A DNA stretch of 44,364 nucleotides from Intrasporangiaceae bacterium. Lineage in GTDB: Bacteria; Actinomycetota; Actinomycetes; Actinomycetales; Dermatophilaceae. Of this stretch, positions 24,590 through 32,572 are shown one piece after another; the stretch's first letter is position 1, and each line of letters starts with the position of its first letter. The notes beneath the pieces were generated by a model. It searched no databases. It was not told where the DNA came from and worked only from the letters and a program-made list of their open reading frames with translations. Both the position numbers and the translations under genes were made by a program. The stretch lies in the NCBI GenBank assembly GCA_012518475.1, contig JAAYSB010000006.1:1-44364 (forward strand), read 5' to 3'.

Positions 24590-24719
24590 CCAGGTCCAGA
24601 GGGGGCCGGCGCCCGAGCGACCGCTCGCCGTTACGGTCCTACTGGGGGGGATCTGTCCGGCGCTGAGGGATCGGGCACGATTCACCTCCAGGGCGCGTTT
24701 CACCGGTACCGTCGGATGT

Positions 24720-25901
24720 GTGAACGGCCAGCGTGTCGCCCTGGGGGCGGCAGCAGGGTGGCAGGAGGGGCTCTATCGGCGCCTCCACGAGAACCCTGAG
24801 CTCTCCATGGCGGAACTTGAGACCGGCGCGGAGATCGCCCGGTGTCTCGAGTCGCTGGGCTATGAGGTGCAGCGGATCGGCGGTGGGGTCGTCGGGGTGC
24901 TCCGCAACGGCGACGGCCCGACGGTCCTCTTCCGCGCCGACATCGACGCCCTCCCGGTCCAGGAGGCGACCGGCCTCCCGTATGCCAGCAAGCGGCCCGG
25001 TGTCATGCACGCCTGCGGCCACGACATCCACATCGTCTGTGCGCTCGGCGCCGCCGAGGTGCTCGCAGGGTCCCGGGACACCTGGGCCGGCACCTACATC
25101 GCGCTCTTCCAGCCGGGGGAGGAGACCGCGGAGGGCGCCCGTGCCATGGTCGCCGACGGGCTCGTCGACCGGGTGCCGAGGCCGGACGTCGCTCTTGCCC
25201 AGCACGTCCTCACCGCTCCGGTCGCCGGCAAGGTCGCAACAGCCCCGGGTCCGGTCCTCTCCGCCGGGGACTCCATCCGGATCACCATCCACGGACAGGG
25301 CTCGCACGGGTCCATGCCGCACCTCGGGGTCGACCCCGTCGTCATCGCCGCCGCGGTCGTGCTGCGCCTCCAGACGATCGTCTCGCGGGTTCTCGCCCCG
25401 GACGAGTTCGGCGTCGTCACCGTTGGCAGCGTCCAGGCAGGGGCCAAGTCCAACATCATCCCCGCTGAGGCGACTCTCCTCGTCAATACCCGCGCCTATG
25501 ACGAGCACGTGCGCGACCGGATCCTCGAGGCCGTCGAAAGGATGGTTCGGGCCGAGTGCGCCGCGTCCGGTGCGACGCAGGAGCCGACCTTCGAGTTCTA
25601 CGACCAGTTCCCGATGACCGACAACGACGCCGCCGTCACCGCTCGGGTCCGGGCCGCCCTCGAGGGCGGCCTCGGTGCCGACCGGGTCGAAGACCTGCCG
25701 CGGATCCCCGCGAGCGAGGACTTCAGCGTCATCCCCGATGCCTTCGACGTCCCCTATACCTACTGGGGTCTCGGCGGATTCACTGCTGGGCAGACGCCGC
25801 TGCCCAACCATAATCCCGGCTTCGCGCCAGCCATCCAGCCCACCATCAGCACCGGAACCGAAGCGGCGGTGATCGCCGCTCTCGCCTGGCTCGGAAAGTA
25901 G
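24720..25901 (+). CDS. M20D family amidohydrolase (hippurate hydrolase-like)
   Basis: LHENPELS, RADIDALP, MHACGHD, FQPGEE, HGSMPH, SEDF, NHNP; leaderless TACCGT-N7-GTG. Confidence 0.92.
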   Translation: MNGQRVALGAAAGWQEGLYRRLHENPELSMAELETGAEIARCLESLGYEVQRIGGGVVGVLRNGDGPTVLFRADIDALPVQEATGLPYASKRPGVMHACGHDIHIVCALGAAEVLAGSRDTWAGTYIALFQPGEETAEGARAMVADGLVDRVPRPDVALAQHVLTAPVAGKVATAPGPVLSAGDSIRITIHGQGSHGSMPHLGVDPVVIAAAVVLRLQTIVSRVLAPDEFGVVTVGSVQAGAKSNIIPAEATLLVNTRAYDEHVRDRILEAVERMVRAECAASGATQEPTFEFYDQFPMTDNDAAVTARVRAALEGGLGADRVEDLPRIPASEDFSVIPDAFDVPYTYWGLGGFTAGQTPLPNHNPGFAPAIQPTISTGTEAAVIAALAWLGK

Positions 25902-25907
25902 GTCACG

Positions 25908-27419
25908 ATGAGCGTCAACGTCGCCGCGGAACCAGACATCGCATACCAGGGCAACGACAAGCTGCTCGCCGGCCTCGTGCTCTCGATCGTGTCCTTCTGG
26001 CTGTTCGCCATCTCGCTCGGCACCGTCGCGCCGGCGGTGCTGCTCGACCTCAACGGCCCCTACGCCGACGAGGCAGCGAAGACCTGGACCTCACCGGTGC
26101 TCTCGCCGACGGCGATGAACCTCGCGGTCGCCCTGACCGGTCTGGTGTCCGGCCTCTTCATCGTCCTCATGGGTGGACTCGCCGACCGGTTCGGCCGGGT
26201 GCGCCTGACCATGGTCGGCAACGGGCTCAACATCCTCGGCTGTGCCCTCATCGTCCTAGCCGGCGGAGCCCTCGCCACCCCGATGCTCATCACCGGCCGC
26301 GTCGTCCAGGGACTCTCCGCGGCGTGCGTCATGCCGGCGACGATCGCGCTCGTCAAGTCCTACTGGGACGGGCCGGCCCGTCAGCGCGCCGTGTCGATGT
26401 GGTCGATCGGATCCTTCGGTGGTGCCGGGCTCGCGGCCTTCATCGGCGGCCTGACGGCGACCCAGATGTCCTGGCGCTGGATCTTCGTCTTCTCGGCGAT
26501 CGTGTCCGTGGTCGCGATGCTCCTCGTCCGCGGGACCCCCGAGAGCCGCGTCGTCACCACCGGCCACCGACGCTTCGACAGTGTGGGCCTCGCACTGTTC
26601 CTCATCACCTTCCTAGCGGTCATGCTGCTGCTCACGTTCGGCGGAAAGACCGTCGGGTGGCTCTCGCCGACCGGACTCGGGCTGCTGCTCGGGTTCCTCG
26701 TCGGACTCATCGCGTTCGTCATCGTCGAGCGGGGCCGGGAGTACGCCTTCATCGACTTCGGGCTGTTCCGCAACATGAACTTCACCGGTGCTGTCGCCGC
26801 GAACTTCATGCTCAACTGCACGCTCGGCACGCTGATCGTCAGCCAGCAGCTCCTCCAGATCGGCGGGAACATGGCGCCGCTCGCCGCCGGCGCACTCACT
26901 CTCGGCTACCCGCTCATGGTCATCCTCTTCGTCCGCGCGGGAGAGAGGCTGCTCCAGGTGCACGGCCCGCGCAAGCCGATGATCTGGGGAGCGCTGCTCG
27001 TCGCCCTCGCCGCCGCACTGCTCATGCCGACGAACCTCCTGCTCACGCAGTACCGCTGGCTCGCGCTCATCGCCTATGCGTGCTTCGGGCTCGGACTGGC
27101 GTTCTTCGCGACCCCGGCCACCGACGCCGCCCTGACGAGTCTGCCGCCGGAGCACGCCGGCTCCGGGATGGGCATCTTCAAGATGGCCTCCTCCCTGGGC
27201 GGGGCGATCGGGACGGCCGTGGCCCTGTCCCTCTTCCTCGGGTTCTCCGGAAGCGACGCGGGCAACGTCGTCGGCTATGTCGTCGAGATGGTCGGCCGCC
27301 AGGACAACATCGCTATCCGCCAGGCCGCGATGATCGCGATCGGGGCGATGCTCCTCTTCGCCCTGGCCGCTGCGGTCGTCGCCGCCCTCGCCGTTCCGAA
27401 GGGTCGCCAGGAGGACTGA
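25908..27419 (+). CDS. 14-TM MFS transporter (DHA2, NorB/NorC-like)
   Basis: GNDKLLAGLVLSIVSFWLFA N-terminus, GGLADRFGR, WRWIF, GIFKMASSLGGA. Confidence 0.88.
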   Translation: MSVNVAAEPDIAYQGNDKLLAGLVLSIVSFWLFAISLGTVAPAVLLDLNGPYADEAAKTWTSPVLSPTAMNLAVALTGLVSGLFIVLMGGLADRFGRVRLTMVGNGLNILGCALIVLAGGALATPMLITGRVVQGLSAACVMPATIALVKSYWDGPARQRAVSMWSIGSFGGAGLAAFIGGLTATQMSWRWIFVFSAIVSVVAMLLVRGTPESRVVTTGHRRFDSVGLALFLITFLAVMLLLTFGGKTVGWLSPTGLGLLLGFLVGLIAFVIVERGREYAFIDFGLFRNMNFTGAVAANFMLNCTLGTLIVSQQLLQIGGNMAPLAAGALTLGYPLMVILFVRAGERLLQVHGPRKPMIWGALLVALAAALLMPTNLLLTQYRWLALIAYACFGLGLAFFATPATDAALTSLPPEHAGSGMGIFKMASSLGGAIGTAVALSLFLGFSGSDAGNVVGYVVEMVGRQDNIAIRQAAMIAIGAMLLFALAAAVVAALAVPKGRQED

Positions 27420-27574: not shown

Positions 27575-27608
27575 AGTTCTGGTTCGTCACGACATCAAGG
27601 AGCAGCCC

Positions 27609-29090
27609 ATGGCGCGGCCCATCGCACCCGAAGACCTCACGTGGCTGCTCATGGATCGACCGAACAACCTCATGCACGTCCACGGCTTCATGGGCTTCGA
27701 CGTGCTCCCGGACCTCGAGGCGTACACGAATGTCGTCATGGAGCGCATGGTGCGCAAGTTCCGGCGGCTGTCCCAGGTGCCGGTGCAGATCGACGGGGAC
27801 TGGTACTGGGAGGACGACGTCGACTTCTCCATCGACAATCACGTGCGCACCGTCGTCCTCGACGACGCCGACGACGAGACATTCCGGAGGTATGTGTCGG
27901 GCCAGTTCTCCCAGCCGTTCGACCGGACCCGCCCGCTGTGGGAGTTCCAGCTCATCACAGCACCCGGGACCGAAGGCGGATATGGCTTCGGACGCTTCCA
28001 CCACGGTCTCGCCGACGGCATCCGCCTCGTCCAGATGATCATCAGCCTCTGTGACCCGGCCGAGGGGGCGGTTCCCAACAAGGTCGGCCGCAACCGCGAC
28101 CGACAGCACCAGCACCTTCTCGAGCAGGCACTGCACTTCGCGGAGACCTCGGTGACCGACACGATCGATTTCGCCGGCCGCGCCGGCCGCGCCCTGGCCA
28201 GGGCTGGGCGCAGCGCCGTGACGACGACCAACCCCCTCGGCCTCGCCCATCACATCGGCGAGGCGCTCGAGCTGGTGCGTCACCCGGTCAAGCTCATCGA
28301 CGCCGTGACCGGCCTGGCCTCGTTCGACAACGAGGTGACGAATACCTGGCGCGAACTGGCCCGCATGCTCATCTCCGACGGCCACGAGGCCGGCGCCTGG
28401 GCCGGGAGCGCCGGCGTCGACAAGTCCGTCGCCTGGCTGGAGTCCTTCCCGCTCAAGGACCTGCGCAAGGCGAGCAAGGCATACCGGTGCACCCTCAACG
28501 ACATCCTCCTTGCTGCGGTGTCCCTCGCGCTGACCGACTACCTCGCCGAGCGTGGGGTGACGGACGTCGAGACCCTGTCCTGGATGATGCCGGTCTCCCT
28601 TCAGCCGGTCGACGAGCGCCTGCCCTCCAAGCTCGGCAACAAGTTCGTCGTTGTCATGCTCCCGATGCCCCTCGGCATCCGTGATCCCGAGCGCCTCATC
28701 CGCCGGGTCCACGAGGCCTCGACGAGGCTGAAGCACTCCGCCGAGCCCCTCGTCGCCTTCGGCTTCCAGCGCATCATCGCCGAGGCGCCGACAGGGGTCG
28801 CACGAGCCCTCACCAGCTTCTTCGCCGACAAGACGATCGGCCAGCTGACCAACGTTCCTGGACCGCGCATCGCCCTCAACCTCGCCGGAGTCCCCGTCCG
28901 CTCGATCCTTGGCTGGGTGCCGACGTCCGGCGACCAGCCGCTCGGCATCTGCCTGTTCAGCTACAACGACTCCCTCACTGTCGGCGTCGCCTCCGACGCG
29001 CGCATGATCCCTGACCCCGAGCACCTCGCCGCTCTCATCCAGACCCATCTCGAGGCGCTCTCCTCCACCACGAAGGCATCCCATGGCTGA
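27609..29090 (+). CDS. Wax ester synthase / diacylglycerol acyltransferase (WS/DGAT)
   Basis: Catalytic HHGLADG (HHxxxDG), DRTRPLWE, TLNDILL, LGNKF, TNVPGP, FSYND; AAGGAG RBS. Confidence 0.93.
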   Translation: MARPIAPEDLTWLLMDRPNNLMHVHGFMGFDVLPDLEAYTNVVMERMVRKFRRLSQVPVQIDGDWYWEDDVDFSIDNHVRTVVLDDADDETFRRYVSGQFSQPFDRTRPLWEFQLITAPGTEGGYGFGRFHHGLADGIRLVQMIISLCDPAEGAVPNKVGRNRDRQHQHLLEQALHFAETSVTDTIDFAGRAGRALARAGRSAVTTTNPLGLAHHIGEALELVRHPVKLIDAVTGLASFDNEVTNTWRELARMLISDGHEAGAWAGSAGVDKSVAWLESFPLKDLRKASKAYRCTLNDILLAAVSLALTDYLAERGVTDVETLSWMMPVSLQPVDERLPSKLGNKFVVVMLPMPLGIRDPERLIRRVHEASTRLKHSAEPLVAFGFQRIIAEAPTGVARALTSFFADKTIGQLTNVPGPRIALNLAGVPVRSILGWVPTSGDQPLGICLFSYNDSLTVGVASDARMIPDPEHLAALIQTHLEALSSTTKASHG

Positions 29091-31203
29091 CCGCAAGCCC
29101 AGCAGAACGAAGTCGACCCCCCGGGCCACCGATCCCAAGGTGGTCGTCAATGTCACCCTCCAGGGAGGGGAGTGGGACTACGACCTGTCGGCATCCCTCG
29201 CCGGCCACAACTTCCGGCTCATCCGGATCGGCACGAGTGGGGATGTCACGGCGGCCGAGGAGCATGTGTGGCGCTGGTCGCTGTCGGCCGACGCCATCGC
29301 TGTCAGCGGGGTGCGCGAGGCGCGTGCCGCCGGTCATTTCACCGGACAGATCGAGGACTTCCGCAAGGTGAAGGGGACGACGACGCGGGTGCCTGTCCGC
29401 GACGACTCGCTCCTTGCAGACGTGTTCCAGGAGTGGGCGATCCGCCGCGTCCAGACCGAGATGCCGGGCTACTTCACCAACGCCCGCGTCGTCATCGTCG
29501 GCAAGACGACCCGCGAGCGGACGGTCTCGGTACTGCGCGAGTTCACCGACAACATCGTCTTCGAGGTGCCGCGCGAGGACCTCGACCTTCCGGGAAGCTT
29601 CAAGACCAACCCCGTCACCGCGGCGGCCTCCGACATCACCGAGACCGCCTGGCGCTGGACGCCCGGCTTCCTCAAGCACGCCGTCTCCGCCCCGGCCGGC
29701 TGGGTGACCGACAAGATCGCCCACCACGCCGCCGAGAACGCCGACGTGATCATCGGCTCGTTCTCCGAGCTGATGCGCTTCGGGCTGCCCGAGCTCAAGG
29801 GCAAGGCGGTCATCACGAGCGCGGTCTCCGAGGAGCGGCTCGAGACCCTCGCCGAGCTCGGCGCGGACCTGGTCGTCGACGTCACCCCCCAGCCGTTCGA
29901 CTTCATCGTCGTGCCCGCCCTGTTCGAGGCGATGGTGGCCGCGACCCTACCGAAGGGGAGCGAGCTCACGACCGACGCGCTGGCCCAGTTCATTCAGGAC
30001 GCCGAGCTCGAGCCGCGGCTGCTGTGGCCCAACGGGCCGCGCCGCAAGAGTCGCTTCTCCTTCGTCATCCACCCGCTCTCGACCGAGTACTTCAAGAACG
30101 TCGAGCCCCTCGGCAAGGTCATGAGCATCCCGGGCATGGGCCAGGTCGTCGAGAAGGCCGTGGCGTACGTGCCGCCCTTCGTCTACAGCCACGTCACCGG
30201 CATCGTCTCCGCCACCGGCGATGAGGCGGAGGGCTGGCTCATCACCGTCGGCGGCACCCCCAAGGAGATGCTCGCCCACCCGCCCGAGTTCACCTACTCC
30301 CGCCTCCTCGAGGCCAGCGAGATCTCGCGTCGGCTCGGAGCCCAGATCATGGGTCTCGGCGCGTTCACCAAGGTCGTCGGAGACGCCGGTGTCACCGTTG
30401 CGAAGCAGGCCCGCCTGCCGGTGACGACCGGGAACTCCTACAGCGCCTCGGGAGCGCTCTGGGCCGGCCACGACGCCCTGCGCCGACTCGGGATCGTCGA
30501 GATGGGCGAGCAGGGAATGATGCACGGCAAGGCCATGGTCGTCGGGGCCTCCGGCGCCATCGGCTCGGCCTGCGCACGCCTGCTGGCCCTCGCCTGCGAC
30601 GAGCTCTGGCTCGTCTCGCCGGAGACGGCCAAGCTCCTCGCACTCAAGGAGCAGATCGAGTCGGAGAACCCGCGCGCCGAGATCTTCGTCGCGACCAGCC
30701 CGGCTGCCGCGCTGCCCGACATGGACATGATTGTCACGGCCACCTCCGCCGCCGGCCAGAAGGTCCTCGACATCGAGTCGGTCAAGCCCGGTTGCGTCAT
30801 CACCGACGTGGCCCGCCCCCTCGACCTGTCCGCCGAGGACGTCGCCAAGCGCCCGGACGTCCTCGTCATCGAGTCCGGTGAGGTGGAGCTGCCCGGGGAG
30901 CCGCGACTGCGCGACATCGGCCTGCCCGACGGCGTCGTGTATGCGTGCCTCGCCGAGACCATCGTCCTCGCCCTCGAGGGCCGCTACGAGAACTTCACCG
31001 TGGGCCGCAACATCGAGTGGGAGAAGGTCAAGGAGATCTACAAGCTCGGTCTCAAGCACGGCATGAAGCTCGCGACCATCTCGGGCGTCAACGGCCCGTA
31101 CACCGAGGACGACTTCGCCCGGGTTCGCGCGGCTGCGCTCGCCGCGCGGGAGTCCGCGGGCAGCGACACCGATTCACCCGCACACGAGGAGGAGATGGCA
31201 TGA
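29083..31203 (+). CDS. Two-domain dehydrogenase: N-terminal domain of unknown function fused to a C-terminal acyl-ACP/thioester reductase-like (AAR/COG5322-type) domain
   Basis: From ~30050: FSFVIHPL, GLGAFTKVVG, TTGNS, Rossmann VVGASGAIG, DVARP, YACLAET (Cys codon 30946-30948), collinear with cyanobacterial AAR motifs FGLIGH, LGGFTSI, TTGNT, VVGATGDIG, FACFAE (recalled). Start overlaps the WS/DGAT stop. Confidence 0.75.
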   Translation: MADRKPSRTKSTPRATDPKVVVNVTLQGGEWDYDLSASLAGHNFRLIRIGTSGDVTAAEEHVWRWSLSADAIAVSGVREARAAGHFTGQIEDFRKVKGTTTRVPVRDDSLLADVFQEWAIRRVQTEMPGYFTNARVVIVGKTTRERTVSVLREFTDNIVFEVPREDLDLPGSFKTNPVTAAASDITETAWRWTPGFLKHAVSAPAGWVTDKIAHHAAENADVIIGSFSELMRFGLPELKGKAVITSAVSEERLETLAELGADLVVDVTPQPFDFIVVPALFEAMVAATLPKGSELTTDALAQFIQDAELEPRLLWPNGPRRKSRFSFVIHPLSTEYFKNVEPLGKVMSIPGMGQVVEKAVAYVPPFVYSHVTGIVSATGDEAEGWLITVGGTPKEMLAHPPEFTYSRLLEASEISRRLGAQIMGLGAFTKVVGDAGVTVAKQARLPVTTGNSYSASGALWAGHDALRRLGIVEMGEQGMMHGKAMVVGASGAIGSACARLLALACDELWLVSPETAKLLALKEQIESENPRAEIFVATSPAAALPDMDMIVTATSAAGQKVLDIESVKPGCVITDVARPLDLSAEDVAKRPDVLVIESGEVELPGEPRLRDIGLPDGVVYACLAETIVLALEGRYENFTVGRNIEWEKVKEIYKLGLKHGMKLATISGVNGPYTEDDFARVRAAALAARESAGSDTDSPAHEEEMA

Positions 31204-32066
31204 AGTCCGTCCAGGGCAAGAAGGTCCTCATCACCGGTGGGGCGATGGGGCTGGGACGGCTCTTCGCCGAGCGAGCCATCGCCGAGCACGCCGACACGAT
31301 CGTCCTCTGGGACGTCAACGAGATGGCCCTCAACGAGACCCTCGGCGAGCTCGACGGCCAGGACACCGAGGTCGTCGGATACATCGTCGATCTCGCCTCC
31401 GCCGAGGAGATCAGTGCGACAGCGACCGAGGTCCTCGACGCGATCGGGACCATGGACATCGTCATCAACAACGCCGGCATCGTCCGGGGCAACACGTACT
31501 TCTGGGAGTCCGACCCCGTCCGGGACACCCAGGCGACGATCGAGGTCAACACCCTCGCGCCGATGTATGTCGCGCACGCGTTCCTGCCGAGCATGATCGC
31601 CTCCCCCGGACAGACCCGCCTCGTCAACCTCGCCTCGGCGGCCGGCTTCACCCCGAACCCGCGAATGGCCGCATACGCCTCGAGCAAGTGGGCTCTCGTC
31701 GGCTGGTCGGACTCGGTGCGCCTCGAGCTCAAGCAGGCCGGTCACGACCACGTCAGCGTGACGACGGTCTGTCCGTACTACATCCGCACCGGCATGTTCG
31801 ACGGCGTGAAGTCGGCGCCGCTGCTGCCGATTCTCGACCCGGCCGAGGTCGTCGACGAGGCGTGGAAGGGCATGCTCAGCGGCTCCCCGTTCGTCGTGCT
31901 TCCGAAGACGGTCATGCTCAGCGAGATGCTCAAGGGGGTCCTGCCCATCGGGATCCGAGACTTCATCGCCGACCACGTCATCGGGGTCTATCACACGATG
32001 GAGGACTTCACCGGCCGGGTGGAGCAGGCCCCCGACACGTCCGCAAAGGGTCGGGTCAAGCGCTAG
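31200..32066 (+). CDS. Short-chain dehydrogenase/reductase (retinol DH/17beta-HSD XI-like)
   Basis: LITGGAMGLG, NNAG, ASAAG, YASSK, CPYYIRTGMF; ATGA overlap with the upstream gene; GAGGAGG RBS. Confidence 0.92.
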   Translation: MKSVQGKKVLITGGAMGLGRLFAERAIAEHADTIVLWDVNEMALNETLGELDGQDTEVVGYIVDLASAEEISATATEVLDAIGTMDIVINNAGIVRGNTYFWESDPVRDTQATIEVNTLAPMYVAHAFLPSMIASPGQTRLVNLASAAGFTPNPRMAAYASSKWALVGWSDSVRLELKQAGHDHVSVTTVCPYYIRTGMFDGVKSAPLLPILDPAEVVDEAWKGMLSGSPFVVLPKTVMLSEMLKGVLPIGIRDFIADHVIGVYHTMEDFTGRVEQAPDTSAKGRVKR

Positions 32067-32098: not shown

Positions 32099-32572
32099 AT
32101 GACGCACCACTTTGCCGAGCATCTCGCCGGTGTGAGCAGCTTCCGGATGATGCCGACCTACGAGTTCGAGACCGGTGCCTCGAGGGCGGCCGTGAGCTGC
32201 CTCGGGGAGGGTCTGTCCCTCGCCTACACCTGGATCCACCCCGCGGACGGCGAGCAGCGCGGCGGACTGGTCATCAGCGCCTCGGACGAGGACGGCGTCG
32301 TCCACGCCGCCTGGCACGACTCGTGGCACCAGAAGTCCGGGCTCATGCAGCTGACCGGGCGACGGGAGGGTGACCGGATCGAGCTGTCCGGAACCTATGC
32401 GGAGGAGTGGGGTTGGACAATCACCGTCGTCCACCCCGAGACCGAGTCCCAGGCAGGCATGACGATGCGGATGTGCAATGTCATCCCGGAGTCCGCCCTG
32501 GCGATGGCGCCGGCCGACGGCCCCGCGGTACCGGCCGGACCGTACGAGGTCTCGCTCGCCGAGTGGCACTGA
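32099..32572 (+). CDS. Hypothetical protein (DUF1579-like beta-barrel?)
   Basis: GC3-biased ORF with YTW...AAWHDSWHQ...WGWTI pattern; CAGAAT-N6-ATG. Confidence 0.65.
   Translation: MTHHFAEHLAGVSSFRMMPTYEFETGASRAAVSCLGEGLSLAYTWIHPADGEQRGGLVISASDEDGVVHAAWHDSWHQKSGLMQLTGRREGDRIELSGTYAEEWGWTITVVHPETESQAGMTMRMCNVIPESALAMAPADGPAVPAGPYEVSLAEWH

Follow-up and report, generated by a model that had tools for sequence, protein, structure and literature searches.

A conserved three-gene unit around a double-module AAR-fold enzyme in Dermatophilaceae and a candidate route to wax esters

We analyzed a 44,364-nt contig (JAAYSB010000006.1, assembly GCA_012518475.1; hereafter the window) of an Intrasporangiaceae bacterium from the family Dermatophilaceae, revealing a real, conserved and co-transferred three-gene unit, g1-g2-g3, around a double-module enzyme whose fold is that of acyl-ACP reductase (AAR). 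All three genes lie on the plus strand: g1 (27609-29090) encodes a divergent WS/DGAT-family acyltransferase of 493 amino acids (aa) with HHGLADG at residue 131; g2 (29083-31203) encodes 706 aa with TTGN at 448, GASGAIG at 488 and YACLAE, which contains Cys622, at 620; and g3 (31200-32066) encodes a 288-aa classical short-chain dehydrogenase/reductase (SDR) with TGGAMGLG at 12, NNAG at 90 and YASSK at 159. In the sequence, g1 and g2 overlap by 8 nt (29083-29090), g2 and g3 share an ATGA (31200-31203), and an AAGGAG hexamer resembling a ribosome-binding site lies at 27597-27602 (plus strand), 6 nt 5' of the g1 ATG. An earlier reading of this DNA (the original prediction) had described the overlapping genes, the HHxxxDG motif of g1, the C-half motifs of g2 and the classical SDR; all are found at those places, and Pfam and model matches agree with them.

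We propose that the unit turns acyl-CoA into aldehyde, alcohol and finally wax ester by the successive action of g2, g3 and g1, possibly linked to NADH and with a non-catalytic N-terminal half (N-half) in g2, and we put the probability of this reading at roughly 55%. In this pathway g2 would pass the acyl group from acyl-CoA through an acyl-Cys622 intermediate to the aldehyde, g3 would reduce that aldehyde to the alcohol and g1 would esterify the alcohol; both the reductive direction and the fatty substrate are parts that we infer. AAR itself follows a ping-pong mechanism, in which the acyl chain is loaded on the cysteine, CoA or ACP is released and the hydride is then taken.

The C-half of g2 (residues 323-706; 30049-31203, plus strand) is, from its sequence and predicted structure, a putative acyl-thioester reductase module of the AAR/PigE type. 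Over residues 324-690, E is 6e-52 with the model for the PigE N-domain and 7e-22 with that for AAR; PDB matches are 4ppm (E 1.7e-28) and 6jzq (E 9e-17). The TTGN, GxxGxIG and ACxAE motifs occur together in one module of ~360 aa. An AlphaFold (AF2) model of g2 (70-row alignment, pLDDT 88.8; modelled on P0001, which differs by N219D) superimposes on AAR 6jzq with a Z of 32.8, a root-mean-square deviation of 3.0 Å over 326 aligned residues and 26% identity, and Cys622 coincides with AAR Cys294, YACLAE being aligned with FACFAE. The original prediction had expected both the superposition and the position of the cysteine. A cysteine at the catalytic position is kept in 61 of 70 diverse full-length g2 homologs; in the other nine (P0184, P0185, P0193, P0210, P0224, P0276, P0285, P0286 and P0288) it is missing from the C-half too.

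The same model also fits the TAD of the carmabin enzyme CarI (9E4S; Z 31.8, 18% identity), and a fold search of 48,161 chains placed AAR (Z 32.6) and TAD (Z 31.3) far above the next best chain (13.0). With TAD tied with AAR in fold and described as binding NAD, not NADP (10.1101/2024.10.28.620694, in excerpt), g2 could instead be a non-reducing acyl-transfer enzyme such as has been proposed for TAD, holding NAD as a mere cofactor. We judge this highly improbable: identity is greater to AAR than to TAD (26% versus 18%), neither a nonribosomal peptide synthetase (NRPS) nor a carrier protein is found at the locus, and the position of TAD Asp2170 is a valine in g2 (DVARP), the same as in PigE, with D-V-A-R-P in 50/50 of the homologs paired with g3. 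In the strict sense, g2 is not AAR, PigE or TAD. It scores 78.1 bits against the cyanobacterial AAR model TIGR04058, below the 449.7 cut-off, and 177 bits against the PigE model NF053554 (cut-off 850), matching positions 1-362 of 837 only and carrying no fused class III aminotransferase. The g2-type group, labelled 'predicted amino acid dehydrogenase', is large, one search giving 4,310 matches and another 484 clusters at 50% identity (E up to 1e-30); plasmid matches to g2 are confined to the C-half, are mostly aminotransferase fusions and none covers 80%.

The N-half (residues 1-322; 29083-30048, plus strand) has no significant Pfam or PDB sequence match, the best PDB match of its family profile having an E of 0.16. 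It is probably a degenerate second AAR-like module, a paralog of the C-half that lacks a cysteine: hhalign joins it to the C-half family with probabilities of 81-84% across 210-212 columns (E 7e-6 for the match at 84% and 212 columns), compared with at most 2.2% for four control profiles, and at the aligned positions none of the TTGN, glycine-loop and Cys motifs is preserved. The description of g2 as an AAR-like fusion therefore stands for its C-half and is corrected for its N-half, which is itself probably AAR-like and also exists as a free gene. The N-half is nonetheless conserved: its nonsynonymous divergence (dN) is 0.08-0.18, versus 0.22-0.26 for g1, and dN is lower than synonymous divergence (dS) in 4/4 pairwise comparisons for g1, g2, g3 and each half of g2, with dS near saturation. 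Modelled alone without an alignment, the N-half reached a pLDDT of 39, and fold searches with the whole model were filled by C-half matches; its Atlas neighbours are clusters of 303-341 aa named 'putative quinate 5-dehydrogenase'. The N-half would act as a non-catalytic structural partner, formerly a separate subunit.

The stand-alone N gene (~301-324 aa) surfaced in an alignment search, the window sequence as query having returned mostly fragments. When 401 genomes from the phylum were searched with the g2 alignment, matches came from 47, and three carried the fused single-frame gene. Among the loci fetched, 26 were split into an N gene of ~305 aa and a C gene of ~360 aa, side by side in 17, while in nine (L140, L143-L147 and L157-L159; for example, L145:7032-10872, minus strand) the two are separated by a class III aminotransferase and a START-type gene. 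These nine mostly lie inside a coaX-greA-lysS-clpC housekeeping locus, with radA also a neighbour, in small low-GC actinobacterial genomes, and their gene content looks like PigE/TamH chemistry performed in trans, a putative fatty amine route. Directly 5' of the N gene, 22 split loci carry a 208-aa gene without Pfam or NCBIfam match (L145:10823-11449, minus strand), and at L137:6023-7883 the free N gene occurs in two tandem copies followed by one C gene. The N gene is alone, and intact, in four fetched loci of the split type (L148, 7713-8687; L149; L150; L151), and one query against five N-only genomes found no C gene except for one weak partial match. Such loci represent either a decaying operon or a separate function, and the N protein may thus act independently of a C protein.

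We surveyed gene order around the best 80 of 236 g2 relatives in species genomes. A g3 ortholog lies directly downstream of g2 at 41 of the 80 loci and an extended SDR directly upstream at 23, with both at none; what is conserved as a core is g2 together with a single aldehyde-type reductase. Orthologs of g1 occur upstream of g2 at 12 of the 80 loci and always with g3, which corresponds to 12 of the 38 g3 loci whose upstream DNA was long enough. Full-length g2 was present in 11 of 60 host relatives, eight times behind g1 (seven of these with g3) and three times behind the extended SDR. Some WS/DGAT is encoded in 39 of the 40 g2 genomes in which no g1 is adjacent. Cultured carriers include Nostocoides sp. 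F2B08 (L035), Ornithinimicrobium ciconiae (P0005, an 82% g2 homolog) and Kribbia dieselivorans (L039, g2-g3). Near g2, a patatin-like lipase gene is found at eight of the 80 loci, none with g3 (L048, 10084-11016; L041, L051, L055, L057, L063, L074 and L080). One locus titled Alphaproteobacteria (L023, G471) has almost the same genes and place in the tree as L022 of Ilumatobacteraceae, which probably reflects either mis-binning of the contig or transfer in recent times.

Seen from g1, the association is much closer. A metagenome survey by alignment (the g1 sequence alone gave nothing) yielded 79 loci, of which 58 had a whole g1 with at least 400 nt downstream and 21 were dropped as too short. 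At g1 identities of at least 50%, g2 followed in 27 of 28 loci, with g3 also following in all 19 that were long enough; the proportion was 1/10 at 40-49% and 0/20 below 40%. In 251 genomes of the host family, with 30 of 31 g1 matches fetched, g2 was adjacent in 20/20 at 49% or above (the window's own locus and two loci with a frameshifted g1 included) and in 2/10 at 40-45%. Because adjacency falls with g1 identity, the WS/DGAT clade of g1 is tied to g2 and other WS/DGATs are not. The link is thus asymmetric: the g1 clade depends on g2, and g1 is optional from the side of g2. The recurrence of the trio was thus borne out, with g2 and its reductase as the core.

That most g2-g3 pairs have no adjacent g1, and that WS/DGATs are common anyway (34/36 family genomes), would fit a g1 that is a diacylglycerol acyltransferase merely co-regulated with a g2-g3 alcohol module, whose alcohol is used elsewhere or serves as an electron sink. 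This is quite improbable in our estimation, as the g1 clade almost never occurs without g2, more distant WS/DGATs almost never occur with it and g1 shares the tree of g2.

The trees also indicate how the trio spread. In the g2 tree the state with both g1 and g3 lies at the base of the g3 clade, within which a 33-row clade dominated by Acidimicrobiia is nested; five rows near the base of the latter keep g1 and the rest lack it. When each gene of 25 trio loci was given a tree of its own (with outgroup rooting for g1 and g2), all three trees placed the Acidimicrobiia rows beside the genus of the window. Approximately unbiased (AU) tests (p 3e-5 and 2e-5) agree with transfer but are only indicative, since the tested group had been picked in the light of previous trees and the g1 test had one row placed within the outgroup. 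The simplest reading of these phylogenies is that the whole trio moved from Dermatophilaceae-type hosts into Acidimicrobiia and that g1 was lost later. The joint conservation of the three genes in the original prediction is upheld by both the loci and the trees.

The order of steps is best addressed through the reductase partners. The g3 protein matches adh_short (E 6e-41), with TGxxxGxG, NNAG and YxxxK all present. We rejected it as a close Acr1/PRK07201-type reductase (103.9 bits, fourth of 14 generic SDR matches in the genome), and its median identity to the C-domains of PRK07201-type two-SDR proteins is 28%. The extended SDR (PF07993) matches positions 4-353 of 657 in the PRK07201 model (E 3e-74) as well as the N-part of ~660-aa fusions of an extended and a classical SDR, the second SDR being present in 116/119. 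These fusions have the same layout as Marinobacter maFACR, of which the N-domain is a proven fatty aldehyde reductase and the C-domain reduces acyl-CoA (PMC7573125, in excerpt). In 30 family genomes, the free N-half of the two-SDR enzyme was found only beside g2 (3/3), and the full enzyme in a single genome where g2 was not found. With the layout of the aldehyde-reductase half and standing alone beside g2, the extended SDR suggests that g2 takes the place of the acyl-CoA-reducing half and g3 that of the aldehyde-reducing half. This pattern of swapped partners is the strongest indirect support for the proposed order of steps. Overall, the partners of g2 are swappable and of an aldehyde-consuming kind, namely g3, the extended SDR or, in split loci, the class III aminotransferase. 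A comparable pair, AAR with an aldehyde reductase, gives fatty alcohol in engineered E. coli (PMC7744569, in excerpt).

Next to one extended-SDR-g2 pair, in Nocardioides sp. zg-1230 (L049:10151-11449), another WS/DGAT with 33% identity to g1 follows directly, possibly a second, independent recruitment of a wax synthase. In the host genome (94% complete; 2.9 Mb, 69% GC) no other known alcohol-forming reductase was found: PRK07201 had no match above cut-off, and no FAR-like PF07993 match surpassed E 3e-9, the top one belonging to a gene that we read as dTDP-glucose dehydratase-like. A PF03015 search was silent in the host genome and equally in the controls and so does not show absence.

Cofactor preference bears on the direction of the pathway. 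AAR holds the NADPH phosphate by R189, R193 and R314 (PMC7089970, in excerpt), and the equivalent g2 residues are P513, K517 and R642, with E514 adjacent (alignment re-registered by hand on strand 2). The motif S-P-E occurs in 48/50 fused g2 proteins of the g3 type and 26/28 of the extended-SDR type; split C proteins have G-R instead, in 13/13 among the rows listed (of 17) and in 8/9 of those with the aminotransferase. Replacement of Arg189 by Pro513-Glu514, with Lys517 and Arg642 kept, hints weakly that fused g2 uses NADH, and we place NAD(H) linkage of g2 at about even odds. Strand 2 of g3 ends in an aspartate (LWDVN) that is present in 50/50 orthologs; such an aspartate is the NAD(H)-type fingerprint of SDRs, and g3 looks NAD(H)-linked. 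Such a linkage would be compatible with an NADH sink as well as with the pathway running oxidatively.

Several observations weigh against the wax-ester pathway. From the g2 side, 26 of the 38 g3 loci with enough upstream DNA have no g1, and a reductase partner of either kind is missing from 11 of the 70 loci whose flanks are adequate. None of 21 Acidimicrobiia-type g2 genomes searched has a g1 ortholog elsewhere (20 have other WS/DGATs), and of the three fused g2 genes found in 301 genomes of another phylum, two have no partner nearby. At two family loci (L203 and L204) a frameshifted g1 precedes an intact-looking g2, through either decay or sequencing error. The counts are not independent, because closely related organisms, or a single organism recorded more than once, account for many of the loci. 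We further take PRK07201 to be the maFACR/Maqu_2507 family on a match of layout, the only feature checked. The chemistry of TAD is unsettled in the part of the preprint covered (10.1101/2024.10.28.620694), AAR-fold enzymes also act on unusual acyl groups, and g3 is of the NAD(H) type.

The identity of g1 adds to these points. It exceeds the Pfam cut-offs for WS_DGAT_cat (PF03007) and WS_DGAT_C (PF06974), HHxxxDG is present in 22/23 homologs, and it matches 7nxg (E 1e-21) and 6chj (E 3e-18), which we take to be the Acinetobacter enzyme and the Marinobacter wax synthase, respectively. Against TIGR02946 it scores 274.7 bits, below the cut-off of 309.95, which leaves room for an acceptor other than a fatty alcohol. 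Forming its own clade, with 25-31% identity to the three other WS/DGATs of the genome, g1 might make a dedicated envelope or signalling ester rather than a storage wax, with g2 and g3 reducing an unusual acyl group that could be branched, hydroxy, isoprenoid or dicarboxylic. PigE, which reduces a 3-acetyloctanoyl thioester (PMC8341465), offers a precedent, and the housekeeping setting of the split relatives (coaX, greA, lysS, clpC and radA) fits a membrane-lipid role better than storage. We consider this possible yet unlikely, with no acyl-tailoring, carrier-protein or export gene conserved beside the trio in the 80 loci and with a swapped partner similar to the half of an ordinary fatty acyl-CoA reductase that reduces the aldehyde.

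The pathway could also run in the opposite direction, with g3 oxidizing long-chain alcohols with NAD+, g2 serving as an acylating aldehyde dehydrogenase that yields acyl-CoA, and g1 storing alcohol and acid as wax ester. The best solved relatives of g3, ahead of generic SDRs, are 17-beta-HSD11 (E 5e-40) and HSD17B13 (E 2e-31), presumably members of the SDR16C5/6 group. Mouse SDR16C5/6 are reported to oxidize fatty alcohols in vivo (PMC12269847, in excerpt), a further point against reduction that adds to the invariant aspartate of g3 and the loss of AAR Arg189 in fused g2. We hold oxidation to be improbable: AAR, PigE and TamH are all described as reductive in the portions covered of PMC7089970, PMC8341465 and 10.1101/2025.08.11.669332, the alternative extended-SDR partner is of the reductive type, and no alkane hydroxylase or beta-oxidation gene appears among the annotated recurring neighbours of g2 loci.

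The surroundings of the trio are not conserved with it. An M20 amidohydrolase and a major facilitator superfamily (MFS) transporter lie upstream (24678-27419, plus strand), and a 157-aa open reading frame (ORF) without family match begins 32 nt 3' of g3 (32099-32572, plus strand); as operon members the MFS gene was rejected on one weak match in the 80 g2 loci and the ORF on none. The GC content of the trio (0.66-0.70) is the same as that of its flanks, and, among named loci, the nearest come from Intrasporangiaceae/Dermatophilaceae, for example Nostocoides sp. F2B08. A consensus scan of the locus found neither a promoter nor a plus-strand terminator. RNA-library contigs from four runs (two studies) cover g1, g2 and g3, and two contigs in X2 cross the g1-g2 and g2-g3 junctions, one of them from a ~94% relative; we do not use them as evidence because the runs were picked with this stretch and contigs cannot show transcription.

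To our knowledge, the known bacterial fatty-alcohol routes use SDR-fold reductases. If the wax-ester pathway is right, a Cys-dependent AAR-fold enzyme would constitute a third family of reductases for such routes, the large group now labelled 'predicted amino acid dehydrogenase' would gain a function, and many WS/DGAT-bearing actinobacteria without Acr1 or FAR would have a source of alcohol. If driven by NADH, g2 would be a useful part for producing fatty aldehydes, alcohols and waxes; an engineered cyanobacterial route from aldehyde to wax has reportedly been built. More speculatively, and we regard the full scenario as doubtful, an AAR-fold enzyme of two free subunits, one live and the other Cys-less, that supplied aldehydes for amine lipids may have become a single protein, exchanged NADPH for NADH and acquired NAD-type alcohol dehydrogenases and a dedicated wax synthase as new partners. 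The outcome would be a bacterial wax-ester fermentation in which storage lipid takes up surplus NADH under oxygen shortage, as well as a third fatty acyl-CoA reductase family with thousands of unstudied members.

Our literature search, which covered few subscription papers, found no characterisation of a g2-type protein or operon and, among the matches listed, no report of wax esters in the host family; such a bacterial wax route, if true, is one that we did not find described there. The covered part of a WS/DGAT gene-context survey that includes Ilumatobacter names Maqu_2507-like SDR neighbours and no AAR-like ones (PMC10351704), and Cluster 4 of discrete homologs in the TAD preprint might touch the g2 family (10.1101/2024.10.28.620694, in excerpt). 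Compared with bacterial WS/DGATs, g1 shares HHxxxDG and both Pfam domains but belongs to a divergent clade, below the TIGR02946 cut-off and tied to g2.

AAR, PigE-N and TamH are grouped as AAR-fold acyl-thioester reductases in COG5322 (PMC10829540, in excerpt), and g2 resembles each of them in part. With cyanobacterial AAR (TIGR04058; 6JZQ/6JZU/6JZY; PMC7089970, in excerpt) it shares the fold, TTGN, the glycine loop, the catalytic cysteine and two of three basic residues of the phosphate pocket; it differs by the additional 320-aa N-half, the replaced Arg189 and its SDR and WS/DGAT partners. The original prediction of an AAR-type enzyme working without an aldehyde-deformylating oxygenase (ADO) or an aminotransferase agrees with our searches: ADO (PF11266) had no match in the 94% complete host genome, a Synechococcus control being positive, and no aminotransferase lies at the locus. 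The reductase-transaminase fusions of the PigE/TamH/PP_2782 type (NF053554; 4PPM; PMC8341465 and PMC10829540, in excerpt) are the best sequence match of the C-half, with the same cysteine and the same valine in DVxxP; the g2 locus differs from theirs in having no aminotransferase domain or gene and in lying outside any secondary-metabolite cluster, while a class III aminotransferase does occur at loci of the split g2 relatives. TAD of CarI (9E4S; 10.1101/2024.10.28.620694, in excerpt) has the fold, the TTG motif and the cysteine in common with g2, which is not part of an NRPS and has no equivalent of Asp2170 (D-D-S-G-P in TAD). With maFACR (PMC7573125, in excerpt) the likeness is one of proposed two-step logic, and 23 of the 80 g2 loci pair g2 with a free protein like the maFACR N-domain. 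The first step of maFACR is catalyzed by a Ser-Tyr-Lys SDR with NADPH and without a cysteine intermediate, in contrast to the different fold of g2, and the second step at the locus described here would fall to a classical SDR, g3.

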